The notes under the pieces: model-generated
What the model was told of the DNA's origin: nothing
The model's input: only the letters and a program-made list of their open reading frames with translations
The model's database searches: none
Program-made: the position numbers and the translations under genes
Assembly: GCA_963664115.2 (NCBI GenBank)
Contig: CAXWPJ010000002.1
Coordinates: 192,001 to 256,000, forward strand
DNA from: Terriglobia bacterium
GTDB lineage: Bacteria > Acidobacteriota > Terriglobia > 20CM-2-55-15
Length of the DNA: 64,000 bases
Direction of reading: 5' to 3'
Shown here: positions 1 through 63,685 of the stretch, piece after piece
Layout of the letters: each line of letters opens with the position of its first letter
How positions within the stretch are numbered: the first letter of the stretch is position 1

Positions 1-196
1 CTGCATAGTCCTTTAGCTTCCGGGCCGGTGTCTTCTCATGGATGCCAACTTCGCCCTTGGCCAATTGGGTCTTTCGTGCCGCTTCAATCTGACGGGCGAC
101 TCTAGCGTTCGTGTGGTGGGTACTCTCCCGAATCCTGCGGTTGTCAAATTGGAACTCAAACCAATAAATGCCCTTCTTACCTCGCTTATAGATCAC
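1..196 (-). CDS. Phage-type tyrosine integrase, N-terminal part (runs off the window edge)
   Basis: Not in the ORF track. Manual translation from GTG at 196, behind a GGAGG RBS, gives MIYKRGKKGIYWFEFQFDNRRIRESTHHTNARVARQIEAARKTQLAKGEVGIHEK..., a typical integrase arm-binding N-terminus. The catalytic domain lies outside the window. Confidence 0.75.
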   Translation of the reverse strand, partial: MIYKRGKKGIYWFEFQFDNRRIRESTHHTNARVARQIEAARKTQLAKGEVGIHEKTPARKLKDYA

Positions 197-368
197 TTCG
201 CTTTACCTCCCTTCCTTGTTGCTTGTTCCTGCTTTGTCGGCCTGCCCCCCAGCTTGCCGTACTCGCGCATCCTGCGATCAAACTCGCGCTTGCCCCACTT
301 GCGCCTGCGTACCGCCGCACTGCGCTTGCCGAGTAGGCTGGCCGCTGCGTTGATTTCCTTCTTACTAG
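193..368 (-). pseudogene. Small basic protein coupled to the integrase, 5' end cut by IS1380
   Basis: Manual translation ...SKKEINAAASLLGKRSAAVRRRKWGKREFDRRMREYGKLGGRPTKQEQATRKGGKAK*. Its TGA overlaps the integrase GTG (GTGA). Confidence 0.6.
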
Positions 369-2217
369 TCCCAAAACAAGCGCATAACCAGTCCGCCGAG
401 GCCCAGTTCGCGCCGATAGAATTCGAGGCATAGAATCCCGTTCCCGGATGGCCTGTTCCAGGTATCGAGTTTCTGTTGAATCTGTTTCAGTTCAGCCTCG
501 CTGGTGTTGGACGGTTGACAGAAACCGGGACCTCGATCGCCCGGGCTCAGAGTCATGATCGGGTCAACATCGCAGAGGCTGACGCAACACATCCACCCCG
601 CGGAACAAGACCGGCAACCACCGGTTCCAGGCCAGGATCCGGAACAGAATGCGCCGCCCGGTGCGCACGAGTTGGCACGGCACAAGCATGAAAGCGTTCA
701 AGAAGGTTTTGAACTCCATGCGCAGCACGGTTTGCTTCTCAGCCTGATATTTTTGGCCCCAACGTCCGGTTTCGGGAAGCAGCAATGCAAACCACGCTTT
801 CAGTGTCCAGGCCAGTGACGCGATCACCATGTAGGCCCAGTTGCTGGTCTGATCTCCGACCGGCATCCGCAACGCCTGAACGCCGTTCTTCAACTGCTCA
901 ATGAGATTCTCCTGATTGCACCGTTGATTGGCACGCATCACAATCTGGTCGGCCGGATCCGAACGGTTGGTAATGTAGAAGAAGTACCGGATGTCGTCAA
1001 ACAACACCTGCTCTCCTTTGGCCACCGACAGATTCTTCCGCACCACGACGACACGGTAGTCCCGATCGCAGGCTCCGGGTCGATACCGAAACTCGGCCAC
1101 ATCCTCACCCTGCAAGCGGATATTGTCGAAACCGCGCTGCCGAACGATCTCTTCCTTCACGTTGTCGGGACGTTGGCGCGGTTCGGTCGCCACGTCGTAT
1201 TTCGCGGGCCGTTCCAGGCGCTTCCACTGGCGCGGCTCCAGTTCATCGGCCCGGGCCTTCAGGTTCGCCATCGCGTCAATCCCGAATATGAAACCCACCT
1301 GCTGGTCGTCCCATCCGTCCAGATGCCGGGTCTGGCTGAAGTCCGTGTCCCCGCGCAGCAGGATCTGGCGAAACCCCGCATGCCGGCACAATGCGATGGC
1401 TTGGTCGAACCGGACCGCGGCTCCTTCATGCGACGGCCGGTTGCCGCTACGATTGACCAGATACAGCGGTTCGGCGGTGTTGGCCAGCGAGATCATCAGC
1501 GGGTGATATCCCCACGTCCCGTCGTAGGCCACGTCCATCCCTTGCTTGCATTCCCCCGTGGTTTCGGCCAGTGTCCCGTCCGCGTCCAACACCGCTTCTT
1601 CGAAAAACGCCGCCGGTTGCTGTCGCCAGACTCCGAGCCGGACTTGATTGGTTGCCTCCATCAGACACTCCACGTCGTCGGCCTCGAATCTCCGGCAGAA
1701 GTCTCCCGCCGTCGTCGGATCCGGAATCCGTTGCGCTCCCAGCGCATCCAGATACACCGCATCGTTGCGCCGCAGTTCGATGTCTTCCAGGCACGTTCCT
1801 CCGCTCAAGGCGTTGTAGGCGATGTTCAGCACGTGATCCGACTCGTGATACGGCAGGTGCCGCTTCAACACATGCACGCCCTTGTCGATGGCTTCGATCA
1901 GCCCGGTCCGCCGCGCCACCAGTTGCATCGTCCCGATACCACCAACCGATGTGCCCCGCGTCCGCTCTCCCATCTCGTACTGAATGTTGCTCGCCGAAAA
2001 CATCGGCTCTACCTGATCCGTCCAATGCCGGTCCCCAAGCCGACGTTCGATTCGCCGCTTGCGGTTCCTCATGTTCTTGCGCGTATAATCGTTCATCTGA
2101 AATGCCTCCTTTTCCGAAGAATCTGTTCAAGGTTTTTTTCGCACGGAGAGGGGGCATTTCGGGTACTTCCGCTCTTATTGCACTATCATTTCCTCGTCAA
2201 TCACGCTTGTTCAGGGG
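369..2217 (-). mobile_element. IS1380-family insertion sequence, copy 1 (1849 bp)
   Basis: Imperfect terminal IRs (CCCAAAACAAGCG / CCCTGAACAAGCG), CTAG on both sides (365-368, 2218-2221), near-identical to 7018-8866. Confidence 0.9.
564..2096 (-). CDS. IS1380-family DDE transposase
   Basis: 510 aa; LDADGT, GYHPL, LRGDTDF and NQENLIEQLK motifs. Confidence 0.9.
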   Translation of the reverse strand: MNDYTRKNMRNRKRRIERRLGDRHWTDQVEPMFSASNIQYEMGERTRGTSVGGIGTMQLVARRTGLIEAIDKGVHVLKRHLPYHESDHVLNIAYNALSGGTCLEDIELRRNDAVYLDALGAQRIPDPTTAGDFCRRFEADDVECLMEATNQVRLGVWRQQPAAFFEEAVLDADGTLAETTGECKQGMDVAYDGTWGYHPLMISLANTAEPLYLVNRSGNRPSHEGAAVRFDQAIALCRHAGFRQILLRGDTDFSQTRHLDGWDDQQVGFIFGIDAMANLKARADELEPRQWKRLERPAKYDVATEPRQRPDNVKEEIVRQRGFDNIRLQGEDVAEFRYRPGACDRDYRVVVVRKNLSVAKGEQVLFDDIRYFFYITNRSDPADQIVMRANQRCNQENLIEQLKNGVQALRMPVGDQTSNWAYMVIASLAWTLKAWFALLLPETGRWGQKYQAEKQTVLRMEFKTFLNAFMLVPCQLVRTGRRILFRILAWNRWLPVLFRGVDVLRQPLRC

Positions 2218-2821
2218 CTAGTGTTAGTTCGATGCCTGCCGATCGAAGGACTGCTAACCGCTCCAATGCCCCTTCCTTCCGTTTCTTGTTGTGATTCATT
2301 GGGCCACCAGCGAGGGCTGCGAACACCACTTCGGGATGAGCCTCGAACACATGATTCTGGGTTTCAGGTGACATCAGTTCGTCGACCTCCCGGATTTTCT
2401 TCATGATCATGAAGGTTTGTATCGTTACCCCAACCCCGCGCGCCTGACGGTTCAAAACGGATGCCTCTTCATGAGTTTCGGCCACTAGGGTAGGACGACA
2501 TGGCGCTGAGAACACACTGTTGTGTCGCAGGGGAGAAAGTTCTTGGCGAGCGAGCTGATCGCATTCGCGCGCATCATCGTCAGAGAGGCCGATAGGGATA
2601 TCAATCGCAACGACTGAACCGTCACGCTGCACCGTCTGAAATAGCGCCTCAAGGTCGGTGATCACCGAAAATGCAGGCGCGCTTTCACCGGGTGCGCCCT
2701 GTGCGACGACCCAACCATCGTGGCAACCGTCAATTCCGTAGTGCTTCAGTCTGGTGACTCCGTATGGCGTGATTTGGAGAATCATAACGCGCCTGGTAGG
2801 GAACCAACAGAACTGACGCAT
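2218..2821 (-). pseudogene. DUF429-family (RNase H-like nuclease) protein, 3'-truncated by IS1380
   Basis: YGIDGC..GW, AIDIPIGL, R.CD..AR and EAHPEV motifs; the frame runs into the IS end and lacks the usual C-terminal region. Confidence 0.75.
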
Positions 2822-2890
2822 TCTGGGTGCAGATCGGCGCTAAAGTGTTCAATTGTCGGTCAAATCAGGGCGGATTGGATAAATCGGCAA

Positions 2891-2929
2891 TTCTCAAGGT
2901 CCGAGAAGATGATTTATCAGGACTTGACC
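2891..2929 (-). repeat. Palindromic site A (candidate recombination site)
   Basis: Minus strand GGTCAAGTCCTGATAA-ATCATC-TTCTCGGACCTTGAGAA; homologous to 4345, 9561/10824, 61773 and 63644. Confidence 0.85.
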
Positions 2930-2936
2930 TTGAATA

Positions 2937-2971
2937 TCAGGGGACTGGCACCCGTTCCTTCAGTTCTTCAA
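2937..2971 (-). pseudogene. Orphan 3' tail (EELKERVPVP*) of a Ser/Thr kinase-PD40 family gene
   Basis: TTGAAGAACTGAAGGAACGGGTGCCAGTCCCCTGA matches the tails at 9465-9524 and ~63580-63636. Confidence 0.7.
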
Positions 2972-3122
2972 GAGTCTGGACTCTTGCCCCTGCCTTCACT
3001 TCTAAGCGCTGAAGATTTGATTAGCTGTGAACTGATACTAAGGCGTCGTCTCTTCTTTCAGTTAGCCCAGCGTTGAGAAGAGGACGGCCCACACACCTGT
3101 TTCAAACACTCGGAGTTGTACT

Positions 3123-3968
3123 CTACGATTCCTCGGCTGCAGCTTTCGAACGCTTTCGCAGTCGGTCCAGCGCCCACGGGCCTCCGCCCAGGGCGGAAAG
3201 CAAGAGAAACGAGAAGCAGAAGTAAATCGCATCTTCGCCAAGGTTGAGTATCGGCCAGAATGTCCGGGGTTGATGGCTGAGGAAATAAGCGAAAGCCATT
3301 TGCCCGGAAAAAAAGAAAGCCAGCGGCCGTGTAAAGAGTCCCAAAAAGAGGAACGGTCCGAGAATGGTCTCGAATAGATGAGCGTATCCCGTCAGCGAAG
3401 AGAGGTTAGGGCCTTCGAACGGCTCTTCTCCGGCCGGCCACGGCCAGCCGATCATGTCTTCCGTCCCATGGGGCAGCCAAACGAAGAGAGTAGCGATCCT
3501 GAATACACTCAGTATTTGCGGTTCCCAGGGAGTTAGAAAGCCTGTGGGTTTCGCCTTGTCCCGCAACACTGCATCCAGACTCCACGCGCCGCCTCCGGCG
3601 GTCGCCAGGTAGAGGAAGGCAAAACAATAGAAAAACCATAGGTCGCCGCCATTGAATCCCGGCCAGAAGCTCTCGCTCGCGTGGTTCAGGATGTAGACCA
3701 ACGCCATCTCGCACGACAGAATAAAGGCGATGGGTACGGTGAAAATCCCCAGGAAGACAGCCAGGCCACCAAAGGTTTCGAGTATTCCGCTCTGTCCGAC
3801 CCACGAAAACAACTCGAAGCCATCGAATCCGCCACGGGGAGTCGGATAGCCAAAGACTTTTTGGGTTCCATGCGCCATGAAGAGATACGCAACAATAATC
3901 CTCAAAAGGCTTAGAATCTGGGGGCTCGAACGTTCAAGAAATTTGTCGAAGGCTGTCAGGATTTTCAT
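3123..3968 (-). CDS. DoxX-family membrane protein with tandem duplicated DoxX domain
   Basis: Two repeats of LRI...HG.Q/E...E..GG/LGP....G.FT.P.AF..S..MA..Y...H....GGG.W.LD. Confidence 0.85.
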   Translation of the reverse strand: MKILTAFDKFLERSSPQILSLLRIIVAYLFMAHGTQKVFGYPTPRGGFDGFELFSWVGQSGILETFGGLAVFLGIFTVPIAFILSCEMALVYILNHASESFWPGFNGGDLWFFYCFAFLYLATAGGGAWSLDAVLRDKAKPTGFLTPWEPQILSVFRIATLFVWLPHGTEDMIGWPWPAGEEPFEGPNLSSLTGYAHLFETILGPFLFLGLFTRPLAFFFSGQMAFAYFLSHQPRTFWPILNLGEDAIYFCFSFLLLSALGGGPWALDRLRKRSKAAAEES

Positions 3969-4128
3969 GGTGCAACAGCCTATAACACAAGAGTCTCGGG
4001 GGACAACGCGAGACATACCAGAGTTACACTCTCGACCGCTTTCCGACATTCCGGAGAAGTATCCCCGACGGGACTTCTACCCCGGTGGGCCTATCTCGCA
4101 CTGAACAGGTCAGCCTTAGCTGGACGCA

Positions 4129-4322
4129 CTGGGTGGCGAATTACTAGTTTCCCTTAAAGTTCAGGGACTTGAACCGGGGCCCAGGATCCGATCCCGAGTG
4201 GTCATGAGGTGAACCAGCAGGATAATCAGGTCGCGCATCGGCCGATCTTCGCGATCATTCCCACGATCACAAGACCCGAATTTTCAATGCGTTATCCGTT
4301 TGACTAGGAGTTCCCACCCACA
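4129..4322 (-). mobile_element. Internally deleted IS remnant (integrase-core transposase family)
   Basis: Contains MRDLIILLVHLMTTRDRILGPG, resembling the N-terminus of a common rve-transposase family, between short imperfect IRs (TGGGTGGCGAATT / TGGGTGGGAACT). Confidence 0.45.
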
Positions 4323-4344
4323 GGTGGATCGGGAGGCAATGGAA

Positions 4345-4382
4345 TCTCAAGGTCCGAGAAGATGATTTCTCAGGACTTGAGA
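4345..4382 (-). repeat. Palindromic site B
   Basis: Minus strand TCTCAAGTCCTGAGAA-ATCATC-TTCTCGGACCTTGAGA; one mismatch to site A in the core. Confidence 0.85.
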
Positions 4383-4489
4383 CGGACAATTGTCCGAATA
4401 GCTGGTTAGAACTAAGCCGCAGGCGCTCGGAGTCGGCGTACAGCAGATAGAGTCTGTCCCATAAAGTAGCGGTCATAAGGAGGTGTCTT

Positions 4490-5371
4490 ATGACCCAACT
4501 ACGAGAACGGATGCTGGAGGAACTCCAGCGACGGAACTATTCCCCGGCCACGAGTCGTGGCTACATTCTGGCAGTCGAACAATTCGCGAATTACTTCGGC
4601 AAGTCTCCGGCCTTGATGGGAGCCGAGGAGGTACGGCGTTTTCAGCTGTACTTACTGACCGAAAAGAAGCTGGCGGCGAGTACGGTCGGGATGCGGACCT
4701 CGGCGATACGATTCCTTTACAAGAAGGTGCTGCTGCGACGTGCGGATCTGGAACTGGATGATCTGCCCATGCCCAAGAGTGCGCGGAAACTACCCACGAT
4801 CCTGGGTCCGTCTGAAGTCCGCCGGTTGATCCAAGCCGCATTGAGTCCGATGCACCGGGCCATCCTGATGGTGCTCTACGGGACCGGGATGCGACGGGCC
4901 GAAGCCGCCGTGTTGAAGGTGGCCGACATCGACAGTGAACGGATGCTGGTGCATATCCGCGACGGGAAAGGGCGTCGGGACCGGGATGTCCCGTTGAGTC
5001 GCAATCTGCTTGAAGCGTTACGGGGGTACTGGTTATTGAAAAAGCCCGAGGTCTATCTGTTTCACAGCAGTGCAGGACACCGGGGCACGGATGCTCCGAT
5101 CTCGGACAAGGTGGTCTGGCATGCCGTTCATGGGGCCGCCCAGCGTGCGGGTCTGACCCAGAGGATCGGTCCGCACACGCTACGGCACAGCTTCGCGACC
5201 CACCTGCTAGAGTCCGGGACCGACTTGCGCACGATCCAGCTCTTGATGGGACACAGTCGGCTCAGCGATACCACGCTCTACCTGCAACTGTCCCGGCGCC
5301 ATCTTCGAACCGCGCGCAATCCTCTGGATCAGTTGAAGCTTTCACCTGTGGTTAAGGATCCAAAGAAGTGA
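4490..5371 (+). CDS. Tyrosine recombinase (Phage_int_SAM_4 + catalytic domain)
   Basis: YGTGMR, GKG, HTLRHSFATHLLE, LMGH...T..Y motifs; no integron IntI insertion patch is evident. Confidence 0.92.
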   Translation: MTQLRERMLEELQRRNYSPATSRGYILAVEQFANYFGKSPALMGAEEVRRFQLYLLTEKKLAASTVGMRTSAIRFLYKKVLLRRADLELDDLPMPKSARKLPTILGPSEVRRLIQAALSPMHRAILMVLYGTGMRRAEAAVLKVADIDSERMLVHIRDGKGRRDRDVPLSRNLLEALRGYWLLKKPEVYLFHSSAGHRGTDAPISDKVVWHAVHGAAQRAGLTQRIGPHTLRHSFATHLLESGTDLRTIQLLMGHSRLSDTTLYLQLSRRHLRTARNPLDQLKLSPVVKDPKK

Positions 5372-6552
5372 GCCGGCCACCCTTTGAGGTGGCTGACGTG
5401 ATTCGCATCGTCGGAGACCGATTCCGACAACGGTATTTGAAAGCGCTGGCCTGGCCCCAGGTCAAGGTCCTCAACGCGATTACCCATTGCCGGACCGCCG
5501 CACTGGGCGGGAACCGGAAACGATGCGACCACTGTGGCCACCAAACGCTGGTCTACCACTCGTGCCGGAACCGCCACTGCCCGAAGTGCCAGACCAATGC
5601 GCGGAACACCTGGGTCGAGAAACGGCAACAGGAACTGCTACCGATCGGATACTTCCATCTGGTCTTCAGCCTGCCCCATCAGTTGATCCCATTGATCTGG
5701 CAGAACAAGAAGGTGCTCTATGCGCTTCTGTTCCGAACCAGTGCGGCGGCGCTGATCGAAGTGGCCCGAAACCCCAGGTATCTGGGCGGCGAGATCGGAT
5801 TCCTCAGCATCCTGCATACCTGGGGACAAACCCTGCAACGCCATCCCCATATCCACTGTGTGGTTCCCGGTGGCGGACTGTCCCCGGATCACGACCGGTG
5901 GATCCACTCCTCCCGGACCGACTTCTTCCTCCCGGTCCAGAAGCTCAGCTACGTTTTCAGAGAAAAGTTTCTCGACGGTTTAGCCGAAGCCTTCGGAAAC
6001 AAGACGCTCGTTTTCCATGGGGAGTGTCTGGAACTGGCCACCGAATCCACCTTCGAGCGGTTCCTCGACGATCTGAAGGATCGGAACTGGGTGGTGTACG
6101 CCAAAGAACCATTCGGCGGACCCCAACACGTCCTTCAGTACCTGGCCCGCTATACCCATCGGGTGGCCATCTCGAATCATCGCATCCTCGATGTCAACCA
6201 ATCCGGCGTTACATTCCGCTGGAAGGACTATCGCCACAATGGCCGTCCACGAACAATGACACTCCAACCCGAAGAGTTCCTCCGTCGATTCCTCCTGCAT
6301 GTCTTACCGAAAGGCTTTCCCCGCATCCGGTACTACGGATGGATGGCAAATCGGAAACGCAAGACGATGCTGGAACTCTGTCGGCACCTCTTAGGTCAGG
6401 AGTCCATCACCGAGCCGGAGTCCGAGGCGGGTGCTACCCCACCGGCACCGTGTCCGATCTGCCGGGGACCGATGCGTCTGGTCGAGCGATTAACCGCGGC
6501 ACAGCTCGCCGCTCTCGAATCAAAGGAGGTTCCAATTCAGGATAGTGCGTAG
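5368..6552 (+). CDS. IS91-family Y2/HUH transposase
   Basis: Zn-binding HSCRNRHCPKCQ, HTWGQ..HPHIHC (HUH), YLARY. Confidence 0.92.
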   Translation: MSRPPFEVADVIRIVGDRFRQRYLKALAWPQVKVLNAITHCRTAALGGNRKRCDHCGHQTLVYHSCRNRHCPKCQTNARNTWVEKRQQELLPIGYFHLVFSLPHQLIPLIWQNKKVLYALLFRTSAAALIEVARNPRYLGGEIGFLSILHTWGQTLQRHPHIHCVVPGGGLSPDHDRWIHSSRTDFFLPVQKLSYVFREKFLDGLAEAFGNKTLVFHGECLELATESTFERFLDDLKDRNWVVYAKEPFGGPQHVLQYLARYTHRVAISNHRILDVNQSGVTFRWKDYRHNGRPRTMTLQPEEFLRRFLLHVLPKGFPRIRYYGWMANRKRKTMLELCRHLLGQESITEPESEAGATPPAPCPICRGPMRLVERLTAAQLAALESKEVPIQDSA

Positions 6553-7017
6553 CCATCGACACTCAACAATTCCAGCCCAACGCGGTCGTCCAGACTGCAT
6601 CGCCGAAGTGTGTCCAGACGCCAAAAACACGCGTGCTCAAGTGCCCTTTCGCTATATCCAACCCACCCCACTCGGGCGATCGACAGTGATTTTCCGCTAC
6701 AACCACCCCCCACCATCACTGCGTCTCCCCGATTCAGCCTCCAATCCATGGATTGAAAACCCATAGGTCTTCTCGTTCCCGGCCGCGCCTGCGCCTCACT
6801 TCAAACCATTCTATCCGACATGCCCCGGCATCATTTTTTGTCACTGTCGGTGCCGGACCATCTCCGATACAAAACTGACGTTAGCCGGCAAGAAACAAGC
6901 CAACATTGGAACTTGGACGCATACTTGATTACACGGACGAGTCGCAAGCTTCCGGAAGGTAACTTCCCGGTCCTTGTAAGCGCGTTGCTTGAAACGAGAC
7001 GAACCCTACGGCACTAG

Positions 7018-8866
7018 TCCCTGAACAAGCGTGATTGACGAGGAAATGATAGTGCAATAAGAGCGGAAGTACCCGAAATGCCCCCTCTCCGTGCGAAAAA
7101 AACCTTGGACAGATTCTTCGGAAAAGGAGGCATTTCAGATGAACGATTATACGCGCAAGAACATGAGGAACCGCAAGCGGCGAATCGAACGTCGGCTTGG
7201 GGACCGGCATTGGACGGATCAGGTAGAGCCGATGTTTTCGGCGAGCAACATTCAGTACGAGATGGGAGAGCGGACGCGGGGCACATCGGTTGGTGGTATC
7301 GGGACGATGCAACTGGTGGCGCGGCGGACCGGGCTGATCGAAGCCATCGACAAGGGCGTGCATGTGTTGAAGCGGCACCTGCCGTATCACGAGTCGGATC
7401 ACGTGCTGAACATCGCCTACAACGCCTTGAGCGGAGGAACGTGCCTGGAAGACATCGAACTGCGGCGCAACGATGCGGTGTATCTGGATGCGCTGGGAGC
7501 GCAACGGATTCCGGATCCGACGACGGCGGGAGACTTCTGCCGGAGATTCGAGGCCGACGACGTGGAGTGTCTGATGGAGGCAACCAATCAAGTCCGGCTC
7601 GGAGTCTGGCGACAGCAACCGGCGGCGTTTTTCGAAGAAGCGGTGTTGGACGCGGACGGGACACTGGCCGAAACCACGGGGGAATGCAAGCAAGGGATGG
7701 ACGTGGCCTACGACGGGACGTGGGGATATCACCCGCTGATGATCTCGCTGGCCAACACCGCCGAACCGCTGTATCTGGTCAATCGTAGCGGCAACCGGCC
7801 GTCGCATGAAGGAGCCGCGGTCCGGTTCGACCAAGCCATCGCATTGTGCCGGCATGCGGGGTTTCGCCAGATCCTGCTGCGCGGGGACACGGACTTCAGC
7901 CAGACCCGGCATCTGGACGGATGGGACGACCAGCAGGTGGGTTTCATATTCGGGATTGACGCGATGGCGAACCTGAAGGCCCGGGCCGATGAACTGGAGC
8001 CGCGCCAGTGGAAGCGCCTGGAACGGCCCGCGAAATACGACGTGGCGACCGAACCGCGCCAACGTCCCGACAACGTGAAGGAAGAGATCGTTCGGCAGCG
8101 CGGTTTCGACAATATCCGCTTGCAGGGTGAGGATGTGGCCGAGTTTCGGTATCGACCCGGAGCCTGCGATCGGGACTACCGTGTCGTCGTGGTGCGGAAG
8201 AATCTGTCGGTGGCCAAAGGAGAGCAGGTGTTGTTTGACGACATCCGGTACTTCTTCTACATTACCAACCGTTCGGATCCGGCCGACCAGATTGTGATGC
8301 GTGCCAATCAACGGTGCAATCAGGAGAATCTCATTGAGCAGTTGAAGAACGGCGTTCAGGCGTTGCGGATGCCGGTCGGAGATCAGACCAGCAACTGGGC
8401 CTACATGGTGATCGCGTCACTGGCCTGGACACTGAAAGCGTGGTTTGCATTGCTGCTTCCCGAAACCGGACGTTGGGGCCAAAAATATCAGGCTGAGAAG
8501 CAAACCGTGCTGCGCATGGAGTTCAAAACCTTCTTGAACGCTTTCATGCTTGTGCCGTGCCAACTCGTGCGCACCGGGCGGCGCATTCTGTTCCGGATCC
8601 TGGCCTGGAACCGGTGGTTGCCGGTCTTGTTCCGCGGGGTGGATGTGTTGCGTCAGCCTCTGCGATGTTGACCCGATCATGACTCTGAGCCCGGGCGATC
8701 GAGGTCCCGGTTTCTGTCAACCGTCCAACACCAGCGAGGCTGAACTGAAACAGATTCAACAGAAACTCGATACCTGGAACAGGCCATCCGGGAACGGGAT
8801 TCTATGCCTCGAATTCTATCGGCGCGAACTGGGCCTCGGCGGACTGGTTATGCGCTTGTTTTGGGA
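7018..8866 (+). mobile_element. IS1380-family insertion sequence, copy 2 (1849 bp, inverted relative to copy 1)
   Basis: Flanked by CTAG at 7014-7017 and 8867-8870; two SNPs noticed versus copy 1, both near the left end. Confidence 0.9.
7139..8671 (+). CDS. IS1380-family DDE transposase
   Basis: Same protein as 564-2096. Confidence 0.9.
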   Translation: MNDYTRKNMRNRKRRIERRLGDRHWTDQVEPMFSASNIQYEMGERTRGTSVGGIGTMQLVARRTGLIEAIDKGVHVLKRHLPYHESDHVLNIAYNALSGGTCLEDIELRRNDAVYLDALGAQRIPDPTTAGDFCRRFEADDVECLMEATNQVRLGVWRQQPAAFFEEAVLDADGTLAETTGECKQGMDVAYDGTWGYHPLMISLANTAEPLYLVNRSGNRPSHEGAAVRFDQAIALCRHAGFRQILLRGDTDFSQTRHLDGWDDQQVGFIFGIDAMANLKARADELEPRQWKRLERPAKYDVATEPRQRPDNVKEEIVRQRGFDNIRLQGEDVAEFRYRPGACDRDYRVVVVRKNLSVAKGEQVLFDDIRYFFYITNRSDPADQIVMRANQRCNQENLIEQLKNGVQALRMPVGDQTSNWAYMVIASLAWTLKAWFALLLPETGRWGQKYQAEKQTVLRMEFKTFLNAFMLVPCQLVRTGRRILFRILAWNRWLPVLFRGVDVLRQPLRC

Positions 8867-8895
8867 CTAGTGCGATCCTCTAAGATTACTTCTTC

Positions 8896-9369
8896 ATGCT
8901 GAAGCGAACCATTGTCTATTTCAGTCTGTCATTCGGATTCAGCTGGGCCGTCTTTGCTGTGGCTTGGGGATTTGGGCTATTCCGTAACGGCGTTGGTCTG
9001 GCGGAAGGACCGTTTCTTTTCCTGTTCATGTGGGGGCCCGCTATCGGTGCAGTTGTGGCGACGCTTATGTTCGACCGTGCCCGATGGCGGGCGATCCTGG
9101 GCCTGAGCTTTACTCCTAATTGGTGGTGGGCTGGATCCGCACTCGCCGCAGCATCACTGGTCTTGGGTGCAACGTATGCGAGCGCACTTTTGCCGAATGT
9201 GGAGTTGATCGGCGTGGAAGAGGGCATTGCCCGAGCGCTCGCAGACCAGCCGTCTCTAGTCGAAAACGCCCTGCCGCCTCTGCCTGTGTTGCTCGTTTTG
9301 TCATTCCTCGGCGGCGCGTTACTCAACGGAGTATTGACGCTCACTGAGGAACTTGGCTGGCGAGGATAG
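8896..9369 (+). pseudogene. CPBP/Abi (CAAX) intramembrane metalloprotease, truncated
   Basis: Hydrophobic protein with MWGPA motif; stops right after EELGWRG and lacks the downstream His motifs. Confidence 0.75.
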
Positions 9370-9464
9370 GAAAAATGAGAGCGCTTTCGCAATGAAGATC
9401 GTTCATCGTCTGGCATTTCATCGCTCGATCAAGGGGGAATACGACCGACGAGACCGCGTCACAG

Positions 9465-9524
9465 AGGATCAACATCGTCCTGAACTGGTTTGAAGAACTG
9501 AAGGAACGGGTGCCCCTGCCGTGA
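9465..9524 (+). pseudogene. Orphan kinase-PD40 3' tail (RINIVLNWFEELKERVPLP*)
   Basis: Manual translation; matches the tails at 2937 and ~63580. Confidence 0.75.
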
Positions 9525-9560
9525 TGCGGTGTTCTTTTGCCCCAGCAGCCCTGAAATCCA

Positions 9561-9581
9561 TTCTCACTGCCTGATAAATCC
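9561..9581 (+). repeat. Palindromic site C, left half (split by IS30)
   Basis: TTCTCACTGCCTGATAAATCC; joined to 10826-10850 it rebuilds the repeat. Confidence 0.75.
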
Positions 9582-10823
9582 TGCCGGCTCAATCGGTCGA
9601 TGCAACACATGCGTTAAATCGTTCGGCCGGAGTCTGAAACCCCAGCGTTTGACGAGGCCGTCTATTGAGCTTCGCTGCAATCATATCCAGATGCTGCTGA
9701 GAGTGAACGGATAAGTCTGTTCTTTTCGGGAAATAGTGTCGAAGCAGGCCGTTCGTGTTTTCATTCGAGCCCCGTTGCCATGGACTTCTCGGATCGCAAA
9801 AGTAGACGGCAATGTCGGTGGCCAGAGTGAACCGTTTGTGATCGGCCATCTCCAGACCGCGATCCCAGGTCAGTGATTCGTAGAGTTCCCTTGGTAGTTG
9901 ATGCGCGTGTTCGATCAACGCGTTGATGACGGTTTCGGTTTTCTTGTTAGAAACTTTTGCCAGCATCACATAACGGGAGTGACGTTCGACCAGAGTGGCG
10001 ATGTAGGAGTTGTTCGAACCCGCTATCAGATCCCCTTCCCAATGACCGGGGACGGCACGATCTTCGACCGAAGCCGGGCGCTCACGGATCGAGACCATGT
10101 CTTCGATTTTTCCCTTTCCATGGCCTTTCCGGCTCGCTTTTGCGGATCGGCGGATCGTGCGTCCCGAGCGCAGATACTGAACGAATTCTTTCTTCAAAGC
10201 CCCGCGGGCCTGGATGAAAAGGCTGCGATAGATCGTCTCGTGGGACACGTGAAGCGACTTGTCGTCCGGGTATGTGTACTTGAGCCACCCGGCGATCTGT
10301 TGGGGCGCCCAGTCGTCGGCCAGCTTCTCTTCAACCAGTTGCCGTAGTCGCGGACACCGGGAAAGACAACACGGCTTCCGACGATGCGCACGTCCCCAGG
10401 CCCGCTGATCCGCAACCGACGCTCGATAGTTATCATCGCCCCCGTTGCGGGCAATCTCCCGGCTCACTGTCGAAGGTGCACGACCGAGTACGAGCGCAAT
10501 CGAGCGGATCGATCGTCGGGCTGCAATGCCTCTGGAAATCTCCTCGCGTTCGGCCAGACTCAGCGCCCGCGCCGAACGACAACGCGGGCGCGGCCGGATG
10601 CCTCCATAGACGGCCAGTTGCCCGTGAATTGTCGATCCCCCTCGATCCAGTACACGTCCGATCTCTTTAGTCGATTTCCCTTCCTGCCACAGTTTCCATA
10701 TCTTCACGACCTCGGCTGCTGTGAACCATCGCCGCTTCCTATACGTCTTCTTCTTTCGTTTCTTGGGCATACACTTCACCCCTCCTTTCATGTGAAGTGT
10801 TGCATTGACCCCTTGAGATCACC
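9582..10823 (-). mobile_element. IS30-family insertion sequence
   Basis: 26-bp imperfect IRs ending in ...GTC(G/A)ATGCAACA; 2-bp TSD CC (9580-81, 10824-25). Confidence 0.88.
9589..10770 (-). CDS. IS30-family transposase
   Basis: GHWEGDL, TWDRG, PWQRGSNENTNGLLR motifs; N-terminal HTH. Confidence 0.95.
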   Translation of the reverse strand: MPKKRKKKTYRKRRWFTAAEVVKIWKLWQEGKSTKEIGRVLDRGGSTIHGQLAVYGGIRPRPRCRSARALSLAEREEISRGIAARRSIRSIALVLGRAPSTVSREIARNGGDDNYRASVADQRAWGRAHRRKPCCLSRCPRLRQLVEEKLADDWAPQQIAGWLKYTYPDDKSLHVSHETIYRSLFIQARGALKKEFVQYLRSGRTIRRSAKASRKGHGKGKIEDMVSIRERPASVEDRAVPGHWEGDLIAGSNNSYIATLVERHSRYVMLAKVSNKKTETVINALIEHAHQLPRELYESLTWDRGLEMADHKRFTLATDIAVYFCDPRSPWQRGSNENTNGLLRHYFPKRTDLSVHSQQHLDMIAAKLNRRPRQTLGFQTPAERFNACVASTD

Positions 10824-10850
10824 CCTCTTGTCGGACGTTGAGATTTCACA
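10824..10850 (+). repeat. Palindromic site C, right half
   Basis: CCTCTTGTCGGACGTTGAGATTTCACA; compare 63661-63685 TCTTCTCGGACCTTGAGATTTCACA. Confidence 0.75.
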
Positions 10851-18142: not shown

Positions 18143-18688
18143 ATGAGTGAACCATCCACGGAGACAGCAACACTTGGCGGTGGTTGCTTCTGGTGCCTCG
18201 AAGCCGTGTTCGAACAACTCCAGGGTGTCCACTCAGTCAAGTCCGGTTATTCCGGCGGCGCTCGCCCCAATCCCAGCTACGAACAGATCTGTTCCGGGGC
18301 AACGGGCCATGCCGAGGTTGTCCAGATCGTTTTCGAGCCCTCAGTGACACCATATAGGGAAGTGCTACAAATATTTTTCGCTATCCATGACCCGACCACG
18401 CTCAATCGTCAAGGCAACGATGTCGGCACGCAATACCGTTCGGTGATCTTTTTCCATTCTAAGGAACAGAGCGATACCGCCCGGACGGTTATTGAGGAAT
18501 TGGATCAGTCCGGCGTTTTCTCTGCCCCTGTCGTAACCGAGCTGACTCCCCTGGAACAGTTCTATCCTGCCGAGGACTACCACCAGGAATACTTTCGCCA
18601 GAATTCAGAACAACCGTACTGCCAGTACGTCATCGACCCCAAGATCGCCAAGTTCCGTGCGCAGTACTTCGACAAGCTAAAAAATTAA
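18143..18688 (+). CDS. msrA: Peptide methionine sulfoxide reductase A
   Basis: GGGCFWC, GHAE, HDPT, AEDYHQ motifs. Confidence 0.97.
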   Translation: MSEPSTETATLGGGCFWCLEAVFEQLQGVHSVKSGYSGGARPNPSYEQICSGATGHAEVVQIVFEPSVTPYREVLQIFFAIHDPTTLNRQGNDVGTQYRSVIFFHSKEQSDTARTVIEELDQSGVFSAPVVTELTPLEQFYPAEDYHQEYFRQNSEQPYCQYVIDPKIAKFRAQYFDKLKN

Positions 18689-18690
18689 TT

Positions 18691-18718
18691 GGGGTCAGAG
18701 CCCTATTTCCCCATTTTT
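18691..18718. repeat. REP-like element at the end of the RAYT remnant
   Basis: GGGGTCAGAGCCCTATTTCCCCATTTTT, identical to the copy at ~51775. Confidence 0.7.
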
Positions 18719-21563: not shown

Positions 21564-21584
21564 AGAAAGGCAAAGAAAAACCTT

Positions 21585-21797
21585 TCACCGCAGAGGCGCA
21601 AAGACGCAAAAGAAGAAAGAGAAAGACGGGATAGGCTGCCTACATCCCGATCAACCCGCGCAGGTCGGGTTAACAAGAACGTCGTTCGAAACCCATAGGG
21701 ATCTCGTCAAACGAAATCCACACAGACCACCCGTCTTCCTTTGCGTCTTTGCGTCTCTGCGGTTTTTTCTTCTTCCCTCTGCACCTCTGCTGTGAAT
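21585..21797. repeat. REP-like inverted tandem-octamer repeat (CGCAAAGA type)
   Basis: ACCGCAGAGGCGCAAAGACGCAAA ... TTTGCGTCTTTGCGTCTCTGCGGT. Confidence 0.75.
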
Positions 21798-32405: not shown

Positions 32406-32426
32406 GCTGTAGGTTTGCCTGTTTTT

Positions 32427-32492
32427 CAACACGAAGACACGAAGGTCACGAAGTCGGGATTCTTATTTCGGAACCCTTCGTGCCCTTCGTGT
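32427..32492. repeat. REP-like inverted repeat (CACGAAG type)
   Basis: CAACACGAAGACACGAAGGTCACGAAG ... CTTCGTGCCCTTCGTGT, between convergent genes. Confidence 0.75.
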
Positions 32493-32531
32493 GGAACTCT
32501 TCTCTTTTCTTCTATCGAACCCTGAGCACTG

Positions 32532-34147: not shown

Positions 34148-34175
34148 AAGTTTAGGGCTTTATTGAAGTGAAGAG

Positions 34176-34267
34176 TTCAACACGAAGGACACGAAGACGA
34201 ACGAAGATAGACGAAGGGGTCAGATATCAAAATCCAGACTTCGTGATCTTCGTGTCTTCGTGTTGAA
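34176..34267. repeat. REP-like inverted repeat (CACGAAG type)
   Basis: TTCAACACGAAGGACACGAAG ... CTTCGTGATCTTCGTGTCTTCGTGTTGAA. Confidence 0.8.
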
Positions 34268-34327
34268 AAACAGGTATGCGTGTCTGAGGAGCTCCGGCGA
34301 CTATCACAATGAGCTGCGAGATGCTTC

Positions 34328-40828: not shown

Positions 40829-40856
40829 AACCCGCAATAAAGACGCAAACCTGATT

Positions 40857-40926
40857 TTCAACACGAAGACACCAAGTCAACGAAGGAGAAAAGACAATTT
40901 CATTCCTTCGTGACCTTCGTGTTAAA
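40857..40926. repeat. REP-like inverted repeat (CACGAAG type)
   Basis: TTCAACACGAAGACACCAAG ... CTTCGTGACCTTCGTGTTAAA, between convergent genes. Confidence 0.75.
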
Positions 40927-48394: not shown

Positions 48395-49534
48395 ATGGGC
48401 TTCAGAACCGACGCAATACACGCCGGCCAAGAACCCGATCCAGCCACAGGGGCAGTGACGGTTCCCATATACCAGACATCCACTTATGTTCAGGAAGGTT
48501 TGGGAAAACATAAGGGCTACCAGTATGCCCGGACCGAAAACCCGACTCGAATCGCACTTGAACAAAACATGACCGTGCTTGAAGGCGGTACTGCGGCCTG
48601 CGCGTTCGCTTCGGGCATGGCAGCCGAAACCGCCATTACACAACTGCTCCTCAAGCAAGGGGACCATGCGGTGTGCACAGAGAACGTCTACGGTGGTACG
48701 TTCCGGCTTTTCGACAACATCGTCAGCCACTACGGGGTCGAATTCAGCTGGGTCGACACATCCAACGTCGACAACGTACGCGAAGCCATCCGACCCAACA
48801 CCAAGATGGTCTTTATTGAAACACCCACGAATCCACTGATGTCTATTGCAGACATCGCGGGAGTGGCCAGTACGACCCGGGATGCGGGTTGTCGCCTCGT
48901 CGTGGACAACACCTTTATGAGCCCCTACCTGCAGCGGCCGATTGCCTTGGGTGCCGACATCGTCATCCACAGCACGACGAAGTTTCTGAATGGACACAGC
49001 GACAGCATCGGGGGTGTCGCCGTCCTCAAGGACGCAACGGACGGGGAAAGGCTCCGCTTCATCCAGAATGCTGCGGGAGCCATCCTGTCGCCTTTTGATT
49101 CGTGGTTGGTTTTGCGCGGCATCAAGACGCTTCCGATTCGCATGGAAGCACACAACTCGAACGGAATGACCATCGCACAATATCTGAGTTCAAAAAGTCA
49201 GGTGCGTAAGGTGTACTACCCGGGCCTTGCCGATCACCCGCAACACCAGTTGGCGAAACAGCAGATGTCGGGCTTTGGAGCGATGATCGCGTTCGACCTC
49301 GGGACGCTCGAAGCCGCATCCTCTTTTCTTGGACGCGTCCGTATCTGTTCCCTGGGCGAGAGCCTGGGAGGTGTAGAAACGCTGATCTCCCATCCTGCCA
49401 CGATGACACACGCGTCCGTGCCTGAAGAACATCGCGAACGGATGGGGATCACGGCCGGGCTGGTCCGAATCTCGGTAGGAATCGAAGACACCGAAGACCT
49501 GATTGCGGATCTCGACAACGCTTTTGAGGAATAA
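48395..49534 (+). CDS. Cystathionine gamma-lyase/synthase (PLP)
   Basis: Y.R..NPT, ETPTNP, DNTF, HSTTKFLNGHSD, SLGGVE motifs. Confidence 0.92.
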   Translation: MGFRTDAIHAGQEPDPATGAVTVPIYQTSTYVQEGLGKHKGYQYARTENPTRIALEQNMTVLEGGTAACAFASGMAAETAITQLLLKQGDHAVCTENVYGGTFRLFDNIVSHYGVEFSWVDTSNVDNVREAIRPNTKMVFIETPTNPLMSIADIAGVASTTRDAGCRLVVDNTFMSPYLQRPIALGADIVIHSTTKFLNGHSDSIGGVAVLKDATDGERLRFIQNAAGAILSPFDSWLVLRGIKTLPIRMEAHNSNGMTIAQYLSSKSQVRKVYYPGLADHPQHQLAKQQMSGFGAMIAFDLGTLEAASSFLGRVRICSLGESLGGVETLISHPATMTHASVPEEHRERMGITAGLVRISVGIEDTEDLIADLDNAFEE

Positions 49535-49548
49535 GAACGAAGATAAGA

Positions 49549-49665
49549 AAACCGCAAAGTCGCAAAGAAGAAGATGAATATCAGAGATCAATCATTTCTC
49601 TACGTCCCTGCATTGACATTTTGATCCGTCTTCGCGCCTTTGCGTCTTTGCGTCTTTGCGGTGAA
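49549..49665. repeat. REP-like inverted tandem-octamer repeat (CGCAAAG type)
   Basis: ACCGCAAAGTCGCAAAG ... CTTTGCGTCTTTGCGTCTTTGCGGT, between convergent genes. Confidence 0.75.
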
Positions 49666-49688
49666 AACTCTTCCCTTGCACCAATTTT

Positions 49689-51770: not shown

Positions 51771-51802
51771 AATAGGGGTCAGAGCCCTATTTCCCCATTT
51801 TT
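51771..51802. repeat. REP-like hairpin, same family as 18691-18718
   Basis: AAATAGGG-GTCAGAG-CCCTATTT CCCCATTTTT. Confidence 0.7.
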
Positions 51803-61341: not shown

Positions 61342-61772
61342 TCGATCTCTCTCCTCTCCAAAACTACGCTTCAGGGAAACGTGTCCCCTGCTTGTCGGGA
61401 ATGATCCCTTCAAACAGGTCCGATGTCAACGAACATCCGATGGGATTCACAACCCTTACCAGGGCTGTAAATCGACAACTTATGCGTGCAGAACCGTCGC
61501 TTCCTTTCCTGGACCCGGAGGCCACCGATCAATTGAGGACAATCAACGATCCCGCAACGCGTCCTCGTCGTGCCCGCTCCAACGACTGCGACCTCACGTT
61601 GATAAGCGGGACGGAAACCGCTGCCATACACCGTTGCTGCGACCCCGTCTGCCCGGACTCTCCGGAATGTCACGGGCAAAAGCGGCATAATGGACATTAT
61701 GCCGCTAGAGACCGCTGAATTCCCTAACTGCAAGCAACCATTGAATGAAAAGACCTGAACCTACCAAAGTGA

Positions 61773-61816
61773 TTCTCACTGTCCGACAAGGTCTTCTCGG
61801 ACATTGAGAATTTCAC
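61773..61816 (+). repeat. Palindromic site D
   Basis: TTCTCACTGTCCGACAA-GGTC-TTCTCGGACATTGAGAATTTCAC. Confidence 0.75.
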
Positions 61817-62047: not shown

Positions 62048-63274
62048 GTGACCCGCCGCTGCTTTGGTATAGGGATCTGTCGCAACGTCGCCCCTGAGTT
62101 GTTCGGGGAAGTGCCGGCGGAATCGGGCACAACGGGGGCCGGCGCGTCTGGTCGCCCGGGGTCCTACGAAGCAGTGGCGTTCACCGGCGTGCTACGCCAG
62201 CCCCAAGGTGACGACGATTTCACGGACGCGCGGGAGGCGGCGCGACTCTGCCCCAACGGCGCCATCCGCGTCGCGCCGTTTGCGCGGTCCACGCTGACGA
62301 GCGAACGACGTTCGGCGCCACGGCCGTGGCCCCAGCGCCTCGAAGACAACGTATGGGCCGTGGGACACCCATCACCCAAGAACTTCGGGGCCATGCCGTA
62401 CTTCGTTGAGCTGCCGGGTGGAGGCATACTCGTAGATCTACCTCAACCGAGTGATGCGCTGTTCGAGTGGCTCGACGTGCATGGCGGGGTTCGCTGGATC
62501 TTCATCACCCACCGTGACCACGCCTCTCACCACCGCGCCTTCGCCGAACGATTTCCGGACTGTCGGCGAGTGATTGGCGCGGATGACGTGGTCATGCGCG
62601 AGACGAAATACCGGGCCGGGACGATGGACGTCGAGGTCAAGTTAGACAGTCGCACCGTCGTGTCGCTTGACGGCACGCCGATCCCGGTCGATGAACTCGA
62701 CCATGCCGAGTGTGCCGTCATTCCGCAGCCGGGGCACACACCTGGCTCGCTTTGCCTTCTGTACCGCGACCGCTTCTTGTTTAGTGGCGATCACCTCCAC
62801 TACTCGCGCCTCCAGGAGGCCGTCGTGGCGGCGCGTCTCGTATGCTGGGAAGACTGGGAGCGCCAAACGGATTCGGTTCGGACGCTCGCACGATTGGCCG
62901 AGGCCGGCCGCCTCCGGTTTGACTGGCTGCTCGCGGGACACGGTGAGTGGCATCACTTCACACCCGATGGTGGTGGCGCGCTGGCTGCGCTCAAGGAAAC
63001 AGTGGAATGGATGGGCCAGCAGCCGCCCGGGCGCACCTCCTTGGTCAACTGGGTAACATTCGTGTTCATGCGCACGAAGCCCCGCAGTCGACTTGTTCGC
63101 GTGCTGCGCCTGATTGGCGGGGAGAGCGACGATACGTGGGTGCTGCCTCACGCAGTAAGGCACTACGTTCCTGATCACGACCCAACAGCTGCGCACGCGG
63201 CGATCCGCCGCGCATACGCAATCGGCGCGGTCGCCCTCGCAGGACTTGTCCTGCTTGTGCACGGACTACTCTAA
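62048..63274 (+). CDS. Ferredoxin-fused MBL-fold metallo-hydrolase
   Basis: CFGIGIC...CP..AI; THRDH, PGHTPGS, FSGDH, L.GHG motifs; C-terminal TM segment. Confidence 0.8.
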   Translation: MTRRCFGIGICRNVAPELFGEVPAESGTTGAGASGRPGSYEAVAFTGVLRQPQGDDDFTDAREAARLCPNGAIRVAPFARSTLTSERRSAPRPWPQRLEDNVWAVGHPSPKNFGAMPYFVELPGGGILVDLPQPSDALFEWLDVHGGVRWIFITHRDHASHHRAFAERFPDCRRVIGADDVVMRETKYRAGTMDVEVKLDSRTVVSLDGTPIPVDELDHAECAVIPQPGHTPGSLCLLYRDRFLFSGDHLHYSRLQEAVVAARLVCWEDWERQTDSVRTLARLAEAGRLRFDWLLAGHGEWHHFTPDGGGALAALKETVEWMGQQPPGRTSLVNWVTFVFMRTKPRSRLVRVLRLIGGESDDTWVLPHAVRHYVPDHDPTAAHAAIRRAYAIGAVALAGLVLLVHGLL

Positions 63275-63290: not shown

Positions 63291-63636
63291 GTTGGAGGTG
63301 CGGTGCGGCAAAGCGTATCAGTGAACGGGGGGACGCAGCCAATGTGGACCGCCAACGGTGAACTCTTTTGTCGGACGTTGTCGGGCGACAGAATGATGGT
63401 GGTCGAAGTCTCTCTCGGACCGGACCTGGTGCTTGGCGGAACGCAGCAATTGTTCGAGGCGTTTTATGACATGGGTCCGGGTGGTCCATACTGAAACTAC
63501 GACGTGACAGCCGACAGCCAGCGATTCCTCATAGTCCAGAACACCCCGATTACAAACAGCGAGGCAGTGCCGCCCCCGAATCAACATCGTCCTGAACTGG
63601 TTTTAAGAACTGAAGGAGCGGGTGCCGGTACCTTAA
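63291..63636 (+). pseudogene. 3' remnant of a Ser/Thr kinase-PD40 (TolB-like) gene
   Basis: VSVNGGTQPMW...GELF...YDVTADSQRFL...INIVLNWF*ELKERVPVP*, with two stops and a frameshift. Confidence 0.8.
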
Positions 63637-63643
63637 TTTTCCG

Positions 63644-63685
63644 GGTCAAGTCCTGATAAATCTTCTCGGACCTTGAGATTTCACA
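63644..63685 (+). repeat. Palindromic site E
   Basis: GGTCAAGTCCTGATAA-ATC-TTCTCGGACCTTGAGATTTCACA; equals site A minus one ATC. Confidence 0.85.

Follow-up and report, generated by a model that had tools for sequence, protein, structure and literature searches.

To our knowledge, integrons and the dif modules of Acinetobacter are the only well-known arrays in which genes are shuffled at short repeated sites. Here we describe a family of 42-bp sites found in the window, by which we mean the whole 64,000-nucleotide stretch that was analysed (positions 192001-256000 of contig C2), and elsewhere in the 4.89-Mb, 12-contig genome of the Terriglobia bacterium to which it belongs (G000, contigs written C2, C5 and so on). 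The clustered sites border accessory modules and likely serve for crossover in a chromosomal module-shuffling system, in which a putative recombinase, likely site-specific and of the tyrosine type, would act on them; we give this reading a probability of about 0.58. The site resembles that of an integron or a dif module but is likely to be neither, and the system is likely an undescribed one.

The system works most like dif modules. The pdif sites of Acinetobacter, as the excerpts of PMC13141974, PMC11705084 and PMC10132070 present them, also consist of two asymmetric arms around a 6-bp spacer, and modules between inverted sites with the same arm facing inward occur in both, though here 47 neighbour pairs are inverted and 108 direct; fusion modules after site loss, shuffling between sites of like spacer, empty modules and targeting by insertion sequences (IS) are shared as well (PMC12907356, in excerpt, is another dif-module paper). 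Unlike pdif, the sites described here have no XerD arm, a weakly XerC-like arm, arms of 14-18 bp and more than 200 chromosomal copies. They also differ in having two main spacer classes (S1 and S2, see below), a dominance of direct S1-S1 modules, short stubs of a kinase gene at the ends of modules and a crossover that is not limited to the spacer. Since the test for a XerD arm failed, we do not class the system with the dif modules.

Integrons (attC is treated in the excerpted part of PMC8352920) share the long co-oriented arrays of short accessory modules, often of one gene, that occur across species. Unlike in integrons, there are no R''/R' cores, no covariation, no linked integrase and no attI, the site measures 42 bp, the cargo lies in both orientations, modules may hold several genes and a second site class is inverted. 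Cre/lox and Flp/FRT use 34-bp sites, and natural lox sites are few per genome. The 34-bp core of our site can be read as 13-8-13 with a directional, non-palindromic spacer, and its two spacer classes resemble the heterospecific lox/FRT-type sites of cassette exchange; unlike for Cre/lox, no Cre-like gene was found in G000.

Hundreds of short palindromes of the ATTC...GAAT type also stand in arrays in Neisseria, as dRS3 repeats of the Neisseria intergenic mosaic elements (NIME), for which the excerpt of PMC1797815 reports a proposed site-specific first crossover completed by homologous recombination and a phage-encoded transposase/recombinase that targets dRS3. There dRS3 is given as 20 bp (ATTCCC-N8-GGGAAT) with a free centre, bracketing non-coding spacers of 19-214 bp, whereas the present site has 42 bp and a conserved centre and brackets genes. 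Strand-biased circularising elements share imperfect inverted ends of about 19 bp, a 6-bp spacer and tyrosine-recombinase chemistry; they differ in their own integrases, a target-dependent spacer and targets without inverted repeats (PMC9345347, in the part consulted). Kinase paralogs and short repeats of Solibacter appear in the excerpt of PMC3174227, which holds no such site. In a literature search that covered few subscription papers and excluded supplements, we found no earlier description of the site.

Anatomy and scale of the site family

When G000 was scanned with a profile made from the site's right part, 219 matches reached at least 18 bits, as against 0 in the shuffled genome. At 20 bits or more, 214 distinct sites were counted, only 4 of which are contained in predicted open reading frames (ORFs). 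A neighbour was present within 5 kb for 85% of the sites, as compared with a mean of 41% and a maximum of 54% in 200 random trials. The array modules total about 380 kb, which is 8% of the genome. An earlier note, made from the letters of the window, had identified five palindromes there; the genome-wide scan with a position weight matrix (PWM), 214 sites with none comparable after shuffling, extends this result and gives the scale of the family, which was missing from that note together with the second spacer class and the kinase stubs.

The full site is an imperfect palindrome of 42 bp (18-6-18) and contains a conserved 14-6-14 unit, the 34-bp core at site positions 5-38. Its consensus is ATTCTCAAGTCCTGA(G/T/C)AA - ATCATC - TT(C/G)TCGGAC(G/A/C)TTGAGAAT. 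The geometry of 11-6-11 suggested before was thus right as to the 6-bp spacer and too short as to the arms. The left (L) and right (R) arms are unlike each other in the middle, and the site is therefore directional.

The spacer is non-palindromic and was exactly 6 nt long in 154 of 175 L-R pairs (3 nt in 10 pairs). Class S1 (ATCATC) accounts for 119 pairs and class S2 (ACGACA or ACGACC) for about 15; other variants are rare, and mixed spacers such as ATGACA, or ACGATC in the related genome G003, occur. Two R'-R hybrid sites are joined at TC, one being site D of the window and the other lying at C9:991793. Spacer positions were conserved at 84-97%, while the arm positions 16, 27 and 34 reached 57%, 69% and 49%, respectively; a spacer more conserved than variable arm positions is expected if recombining partners must share the overlap region. 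We did not observe hairpin covariation at the variable pair (50 Watson-Crick pairs observed, 59.7 expected, n = 137), which fits recognition of the site as a duplex.

Array grammar and cargo

Adjacent sites within 7 kb of each other were treated as neighbours. There were 108 direct and 47 inverted neighbour pairs in G000. The direct pairs comprised 92 S1+S1, 1 mixed, 1 S2+S2 and 14 with an unclassified site; the inverted ones comprised 36 S1+S2, 2 S1+S1, 4 S2+S2 and 5 with an unclassified site. Adjacent S1 sites were co-oriented in 102 of 106 same-class pairs. Like spacers pointing one way and unlike spacers in inverted pairs recall the arrangement of Acinetobacter dif modules. Modules bounded by two right arms often measure just 42-44 or 133 bp from anchor to anchor.

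Direct modules range from 0.34 to 6.8 kb and hold one cargo gene in 51 cases, none in 17 and at least two in 40. The view that a single gene lies between sites and reads in their direction therefore holds for 51 of the 108 direct modules as to number, and for 105 of 166 cargo genes as to orientation. The cargo consists mostly of enzymes, transport proteins or secreted proteins, including metallo-beta-lactamase-fold hydrolases, thiamine enzymes, amidohydrolases, methyl- and acetyltransferases, glyoxalases and many DUF6152 genes. Divergent sigma-70 and S1-repeat genes are found as well: a module with an S1-repeat gene (ribosomal protein S1-like) lies at C2:256969-258510 and one with a full-length primary-type sigma-70 gene at C2:330491-332179. 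We rejected the possibility that the cargo represents recent copies of host genes, as the S1-repeat protein is 33% and the sigma-70 protein 71% identical to the genome's other copies.

Most sites lie in DNA of mixed skew; among the classifiable S1 sites, 32 run with and 10 against the leading strand. GC-skew minima were located in or beside site arrays on C5 (about 59 kb), C6 (about 49 kb) and C12 (about 508 kb). These turning points may reflect large inversions at sites or assembly joins.

Kinase stubs at the sites

A Ser/Thr kinase gene with PD40 repeats is tied to the sites. In G000 its 3' end is present in about 129 copies, its 5' end in 60 and long copies number about 6. A scored left arm lies within 60 nt of 78 of the 129 kinase 3' ends, and several more ends adjoin decayed sites. 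The 5' leaders keep a fixed spacing, which is about 76 nt from S2 left arms and 74-75 or 100-101 nt from S1 right arms. For the 3' stubs, a profile built on 43 long kinase ORFs (from G000 and from fetched loci) gave a median length of 78 nt, with 70% no longer than 100 nt; at every codon position the stubs are 89-95% alike.

In other genomes of the family (loci L174-L179, from G026:C35:100001-140000 and G029:C6:276001-296000), the same kinase-PD40 genes form long tandem arrays. There the genes are joined head to tail with a stop/start overlap (ATGA) and no sites between them; their termini are conserved and their propeller domains divergent.

Sites and features of the window

The family described above is called type I here. 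The features of the window are as follows.

364..2223, minus strand: DDE_Tnp_1_4 insertion sequence, presumably IS1380-type; not site-targeted; identical inverted copy at 7012-8871
2201..2821, minus strand: DUF429 gene, cargo lying to the right-arm side of A and reaching into the IS copy with its 3' end
2890..2931, minus strand: site A, complete type I, S1 (ATCATC); left arm 2914-2931, right arm 2890-2907
2937..2971, minus strand: 3' stub of the Ser/Thr kinase-PD40 gene, 35 nt, EELKERVPVP*; abuts the left arm of A
3123..4049, minus strand: DoxX-family gene (PF07681), cargo of the B-A module
4343..4384, minus strand: site B, complete type I, S1 (ATCATC)
4409..6883, plus strand: IS91-like element with tyrosine recombinase (4490-5371) and Y2 transposase (5368-6552), about 25 bp outside B
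8896..9369, plus strand: truncated membrane-protein ORF, cargo before C; no Pfam match at 1e-3
9370..9524, plus strand: frameshifted kinase 3' stub ending INIVLNWFEELKERVPLP*; precedes C
9560..9581, plus strand: site C, left part (left arm and spacer start); one site split by an IS30-type element
9582..10821, minus strand: IS30-type element (HTH_38 and rve, ORF 9589-10791) inside the spacer of C
10822..10845, plus strand: site C, right part (remaining spacer and right arm)
61772..61811, plus strand: site D, atypical; inverted S2-type right arm, GGTC, S1 right arm
62048..63274, plus strand: ferredoxin/metallo-beta-lactamase-fold gene, cargo of the D-E module
63318..63636, plus strand: frameshifted kinase 3' remnant; abuts the left arm of E
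63642..63680, plus strand: site E, type I, spacer cut to ATC (3 nt)

All five palindromes of the earlier note were located. Of these, A and B are complete; the IS30-type element splits C, which is a single site; the spacer of E measures 3 nt, and D is atypical. A half-site PWM scan detected no further arm above 10.6 bits anywhere in the window and therefore none in its core genes, in agreement with the reported confinement to the accessory zones. Kinase stubs stand ahead of A, C and E. A and B are co-oriented with each other and inverted relative to C. Two identical inverted IS1380-type copies (364-2223 and 7012-8871; about 77 copies in the genome) bracket A and B, and an inversion between them would bring A, B and C into one orientation; the homologous loci on C11 and C6 spoke neither for nor against such an event. 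The cargo at 8896-9369, labelled CPBP before, gave no Pfam match at 1e-3. The IS91-like element is a passenger, its integrase being present in 6 identical copies in G000.

Evidence for movement of modules and for the position of the crossover

Several modules were found with changed neighbours. A 1.3-kb module lies at C2:264297, C6:43763 and C11:3945 with different neighbours each time, a 701-bp module is shared by C2 and C12 with 99% identity, and 21 site pairs in G000 are alike on only one flank. Between species, the comparison covered array regions fetched from the four congeneric genomes (G001 to G004), which make up a small share of these genomes, together with 7 metagenome contigs. Module matches other than IS, 90-98% identical, were common, while the core DNA of the window is 78-89% identical. 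Match ends lay within 30 bp of an arm in 30 of 96 cases, as opposed to 4.6% of random array positions (the ends are not independent). In G000 as well as in G001, a 740-bp module is bounded by sites on either side, and a module of C2 and one of C9 are joined at a site in metagenome contig L167.

The D-E cargo (window 61895-63634) has a 98% identical counterpart at an unrelated locus of G002. It was also recovered as one contig of about 97% identity from the public runs X12, X14 and X15, which belong to three studies and in which the next module received no coverage at 92% likeness. One X12 contig tracks the left flank up to the GGTC of D and continues with 124 other letters. At this GGTC, loose ends in X12 and X15 read on as an intact S2 site would, although other S2 copies are a possible source of them. 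We infer a deletion between S2 and S1 spacers, of which D would be the scar. The proposal of a gene-shuffling array with an undescribed class of site thus gains support from the array grammar, from the re-neighboured modules and from the strain breakpoint at the spacer of D. The sites are not scattered uniformly among core genes, they do not match a known end of an IS or a miniature inverted-repeat transposable element (MITE), and synteny breakpoints do fall at them.

We then considered where within the site the flanks part. In pairs alike only on the left (n = 9, overlapping), positions 9, 10 and 13 were always the same, and positions 15 and 16 agreed at chance level (5/9 and 3/9, respectively). 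In pairs alike only on the right (n = 20, overlapping), positions 35, 39 and 42 were always the same, position 27 was at chance (9/20) and position 34 was partly linked (12/20). This scrambling of inner positions holds even where the flanks are 99-100% identical. The earlier prediction of breakpoints inside the 6-bp spacer held only in part, inner positions 15-34 following neither flank consistently. Neither the spacer nor an integron-like G/TT fits all pairs as the point of one fixed crossover, and this idea was rejected; a fixed crossover would make arm variants follow their own flank and cannot explain the pattern. Repeated exchange with branch migration or conversion can yield scrambled positions, and so can homologous recombination.

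Distribution and a second type of site

The relaxed type I pattern was detected 152 times in G000, 101 in G002, 62 in G003, 16 in G001 and 2 in G004, which also has the spacers ATCCGG and ATCCTG. Of the remaining family genomes, 4 of the 5 in genus g4 have 1-5 matches and the other 26 of 35 have 0. The strict pattern gave none in 56 genomes outside the genus and 0 in viral contigs; it was present in 8 stretches of two other genome records and in 7 metagenome contigs. The named records with the same site are metagenome-assembled genomes of Terriglobia (Acidobacteriota).

A second and related site, type II, reads TCCAC...CYGTA-NGTCGCC-...CGKA.A.GTGGA and keeps the 14-bp distance between the inner CYG and CGK motifs. 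It occurs after the same kinase stub and is also hit by IS30. Type II was found in 10 of 35 family genomes (genera g1, g4 and g10) and 0 times in 401 genomes of the phylum, a sample without a known positive. No match to either type was seen in eight genera of the family, most of which have the same dif. Dif-like sites with a variant XerC arm are repeated in other genera of the family (G010:C328:51672, C383:5219, C371:16 and C453:240; G020:C6:83682 and 108039) and are possible true pdif-type modules.

Candidate recombinases

There are 27 PF00589 matches in G000. All 12 in G003 were examined; apart from proteins that we take, by similarity, to be XerC- and XerD-like, they are of phage type or fragments. 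For G001, G002 and G004 the comparison covers the PF00589 matches that were fetched.

The two enzymes of the window named in the earlier note fared poorly. The edge integrase (1-196) is of phage type and reaches at best 24.5% identity to tyrosine recombinases of G003. It belongs to window 1-431 (C2:191054-192431), where a small gene ahead of it is cut by the IS; integrases related to it occur close to the site arrays of C6 and C11, beside tRNA-Arg genes. The recombinase at 4490 is the integrase of the IS91-like element and was not found in the site-rich G003. IS91-type integrases nevertheless stay in view as remote candidates, since the point where they land is the predicted cut position; they are absent from the G003 assembly (95% complete).

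A 316-aa tyrosine recombinase (C5:52189) is carried as cargo of a right-arm/right-arm module (C5:52086-53243) bounded by two inverted S2 sites, with a kinase leader after each. We rejected it, as it was not found in G002, G003 or G004 and is present in genera without sites. A Cre-like enzyme was rejected too: none was found in G000, and the fragment in G003 has no tblastn match in G000. Of 334 non-redundant proteins encoded in the arrays, Pfam scans covered 133 and 142 (the latter at E<=1e-12, omitting short ORFs, most kinase pieces and known integrases) and revealed IS transposases and one reverse transcriptase, but no recombinase. The reverse transcriptase gene (RVT_1, C11:21207-22529, equal to L096:1207-2529) lies within a site array and is probably part of a group II intron. 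At C9:714590-715759 there is an integrase which, judging from its insertion domain, we presume to be IntI-like; a crude scan of the surrounding 35 kb showed no attC-like hairpin.

Proposed mechanism and alternatives

In a site-specific system, the ancestral unit would have been the Ser/Thr kinase-PD40 gene, flanked by an S2 site on the side of the 5' leader and by an S1 site on that of the 3' end. Such units would alternate with the short right-arm/right-arm modules, as C and D modules do in dif arrays. Cargo may have replaced kinase interiors, or entered beside them, by homologous or illegitimate recombination, leaving stubs of 30-100 nt. Sites of like spacer would then recombine to integrate, excise or swap modules, which would produce the co-oriented S1 arrays. 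If exchanges recur often and intermediates are processed beyond the spacer by branch migration or conversion, positions 15-34 would become scrambled, and many transfers may be one-ended, so that a site bounds them on one side while homology to a stub does so on the other.

A number of results speak against such a system. The chief one contrary to a plain site-specific model is the lack of linkage between inner positions and flanks. In the cross-species comparison 66 of 96 match ends are off-site, the G002 copy of the D-E cargo ends at a kinase stub with no site at either end, and at 52-61.5 kb, where these sites are lacking, the window is likewise rearranged with respect to G002. Among the joints listed, all from contigs of public runs, there was no clean site-to-site skip and no excised circle. 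Some duplicates in G000 may be assembly artefacts. As for the enzyme, the XerC-/XerD-like pair was the only one among the PF00589 proteins to be shared, at 79-92%, with G002, G003 and G004; an iterated hidden Markov model search found no further tyrosine recombinase in G000, and large serine recombinases (PF07508) gave 0 matches in G000, G002 and G003.

As an alternative, the repeat and the kinase stubs might anchor ordinary homologous recombination with incoming DNA, as dRS3/NIME may in Neisseria, with no dedicated recombinase or one borrowed from an IS. Repeat-anchored exchange has been proposed for NIME arrays (PMC1797815, in excerpt), and the spread of crossovers over the site, the many module ends at kinase stubs or elsewhere, the high likeness of the roughly 129 3' stubs and the failure to find a cognate enzyme all agree with it. 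It leaves unexplained why two spacer classes stand in strict inverted alternation, why a non-palindromic spacer is more conserved than the adjacent arm bases and why joins occur at the spacer; MutS is intact in 5 of 5 genomes. A 42-bp sequence with mismatches is a poor substrate for homologous recombination. We regard this explanation as unlikely, if still worth keeping in mind. Lower still, and improbable in our estimate, is a degenerate chromosomal pdif system recombined by the host XerC/XerD, which the earlier note had included among its enzymes. The 6-bp spacer with inner AA/TT, arm-inward modules alternating as in the excerpted part of PMC13141974, and the status of XerC/XerD as the only shared candidates fit this idea. 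The right arm is identical to the XerC arm of the G000 dif at 8 of 11 positions and to the variant of G026/G029 at 9 of 11. On profiles built from 29 dif-like sites of the family, on which real arms score 18 bits, this arm reached 2-5 bits for XerC (top 1.5-4% of a matched null), so that host Xer is weakly supported on one side; on the XerD profile the left arm scored -6 bits (32nd percentile of the null) and the right arm -10 bits. Type II arms were below -11 on both profiles in three registers. The ATAA/TTAT core, tied to binding and cutting in the part of PMC11705084 consulted, is broken in most copies, conservation extends over 14 bp per arm, and a normal dif, unlike the site, is conserved in 5 of 5 genomes of the genus. 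The eight genera without type I or II matches, most of them with the same dif, also stand against it.

Two further alternatives carry much less weight. The sites could be repetitive extragenic palindromic (REP) elements or terminal repeats of MITEs or transposons that hitch-hike in accessory DNA. They are indeed short, lineage-restricted palindromes of high copy number that are targeted by IS, some inverted pairs lie 42-44 or 133 bp apart, and two Y1 genes similar to REP-associated tyrosine transposases (RAYTs; C10:490039 and 492649) are 0.3-3 kb from one site, on one side only. A GTAG or GGAG tetranucleotide at the foot of the hairpin is the hallmark of REP/RAYT systems. Here these tetranucleotides stand beside only 3 and 5 of 148 sites, the sites are confined to accessory arrays, inner positions part from both flanks where terminal repeats would move whole, and IS elements split the site and carry its halves at either end. 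We consider this explanation largely refuted and very improbable. Hardly credible at all is a role of the sites as atypical attC on which the IntI-like integrase acts in trans, even though a strand folds into a hairpin with two bulges, arrays are co-oriented and the gene at C9:714590 exists. With the attC core consensus (RYYYAAC/GTTRRRY) named in the earlier note, RYYYAAC was present in 0 of 148 left arms, GTTRRRY in 8 of 148 right arms and the pair AAC and GTT in 3 of 148, so that the absence of attC cores, like that of a XerD arm, was confirmed. There is no stem covariation, the nearest site is about 195 kb from intI, cargo faces both ways, the IntI-like proteins of G000 and G002 are only 52% identical while their sites are the same, and no IntI is apparent among the PF00589 matches of G003 or the single-contig G007.

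If a site-specific shuffling system is accepted, it might represent a third kind of bacterial gene-cassette system. It would have hundreds of chromosomal sites of 34-42 bp, at least two types with two incompatible spacers each, and a dedicated recombinase outside XerCD and IntI; the cassettes would be genes captured into a kinase shell whose leader and 3' end serve as fixed ends, with catabolic cargo circulating among several genera of one family. We put this forward tentatively and hold it to be somewhat doubtful. On the preferred reading, the shuffling system moves its cargo, mostly catabolic enzymes, across species of an uncultured acidobacterial family and is invisible to attC and pdif searches. 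The kinase stubs would record how cassettes form, a question that stands for integrons too, and a family of sites with two incompatible spacers would be useful in genome engineering if a new recombinase were found.

Insertion sequences at the site

We assigned the elements to what we take to be their IS families, the IS110 label without a library check. Copies within 450 bp of an arm made up 7 of 7 and 6 of 7 in two IS110-like groups, 8 of 8 in IS30-type and 8 of 77 in IS1380-type elements. Four IS groups insert into the site. Their junctions split it at or beside the spacer, and each site-touching family leaves half of the site at either end of the element. As a common target of four IS groups, the site could serve as a model for IS targeting.

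In G000 and G002, IS91-like elements that bear an integrase occupy the spacer-arm boundary, while in G029, G021 and G007 they sit in type II-like spacers. The window's own element is found, in most of its copies, 25-40 bp outside a site, and the 7 copies examined in G001 have none. The junctions analysed were those at window 4409-6883, C12:569262-570146, C3:2990-3868 and the loci L027, L030, L203, L206, L210, L214 and L219. Where an IS91-like element carries a XerC/D-like tyrosine recombinase, it enters at a short junction of G/TT type. In various genera, several of the sub-groups do this exactly at the spacer-arm boundary of a type I or type II site. The trinucleotides at the left and right junctions are sometimes unlike (TTT and TTA), which hints at integrase-type rather than rolling-circle insertion.

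Other repeats of the window

The only Rfam matches in the window were 3 tRNAs. Intergenic repeats of its core part (21570-21780, 32418-32506, 34166-34281, 40843-40885, 49534-49679, 18687-18718 and 51771-51802) are REP-like and unrelated to the site; they consist of ACGAAG- and CGCAAAG-rich inverted pairs and a 32-bp repeat.

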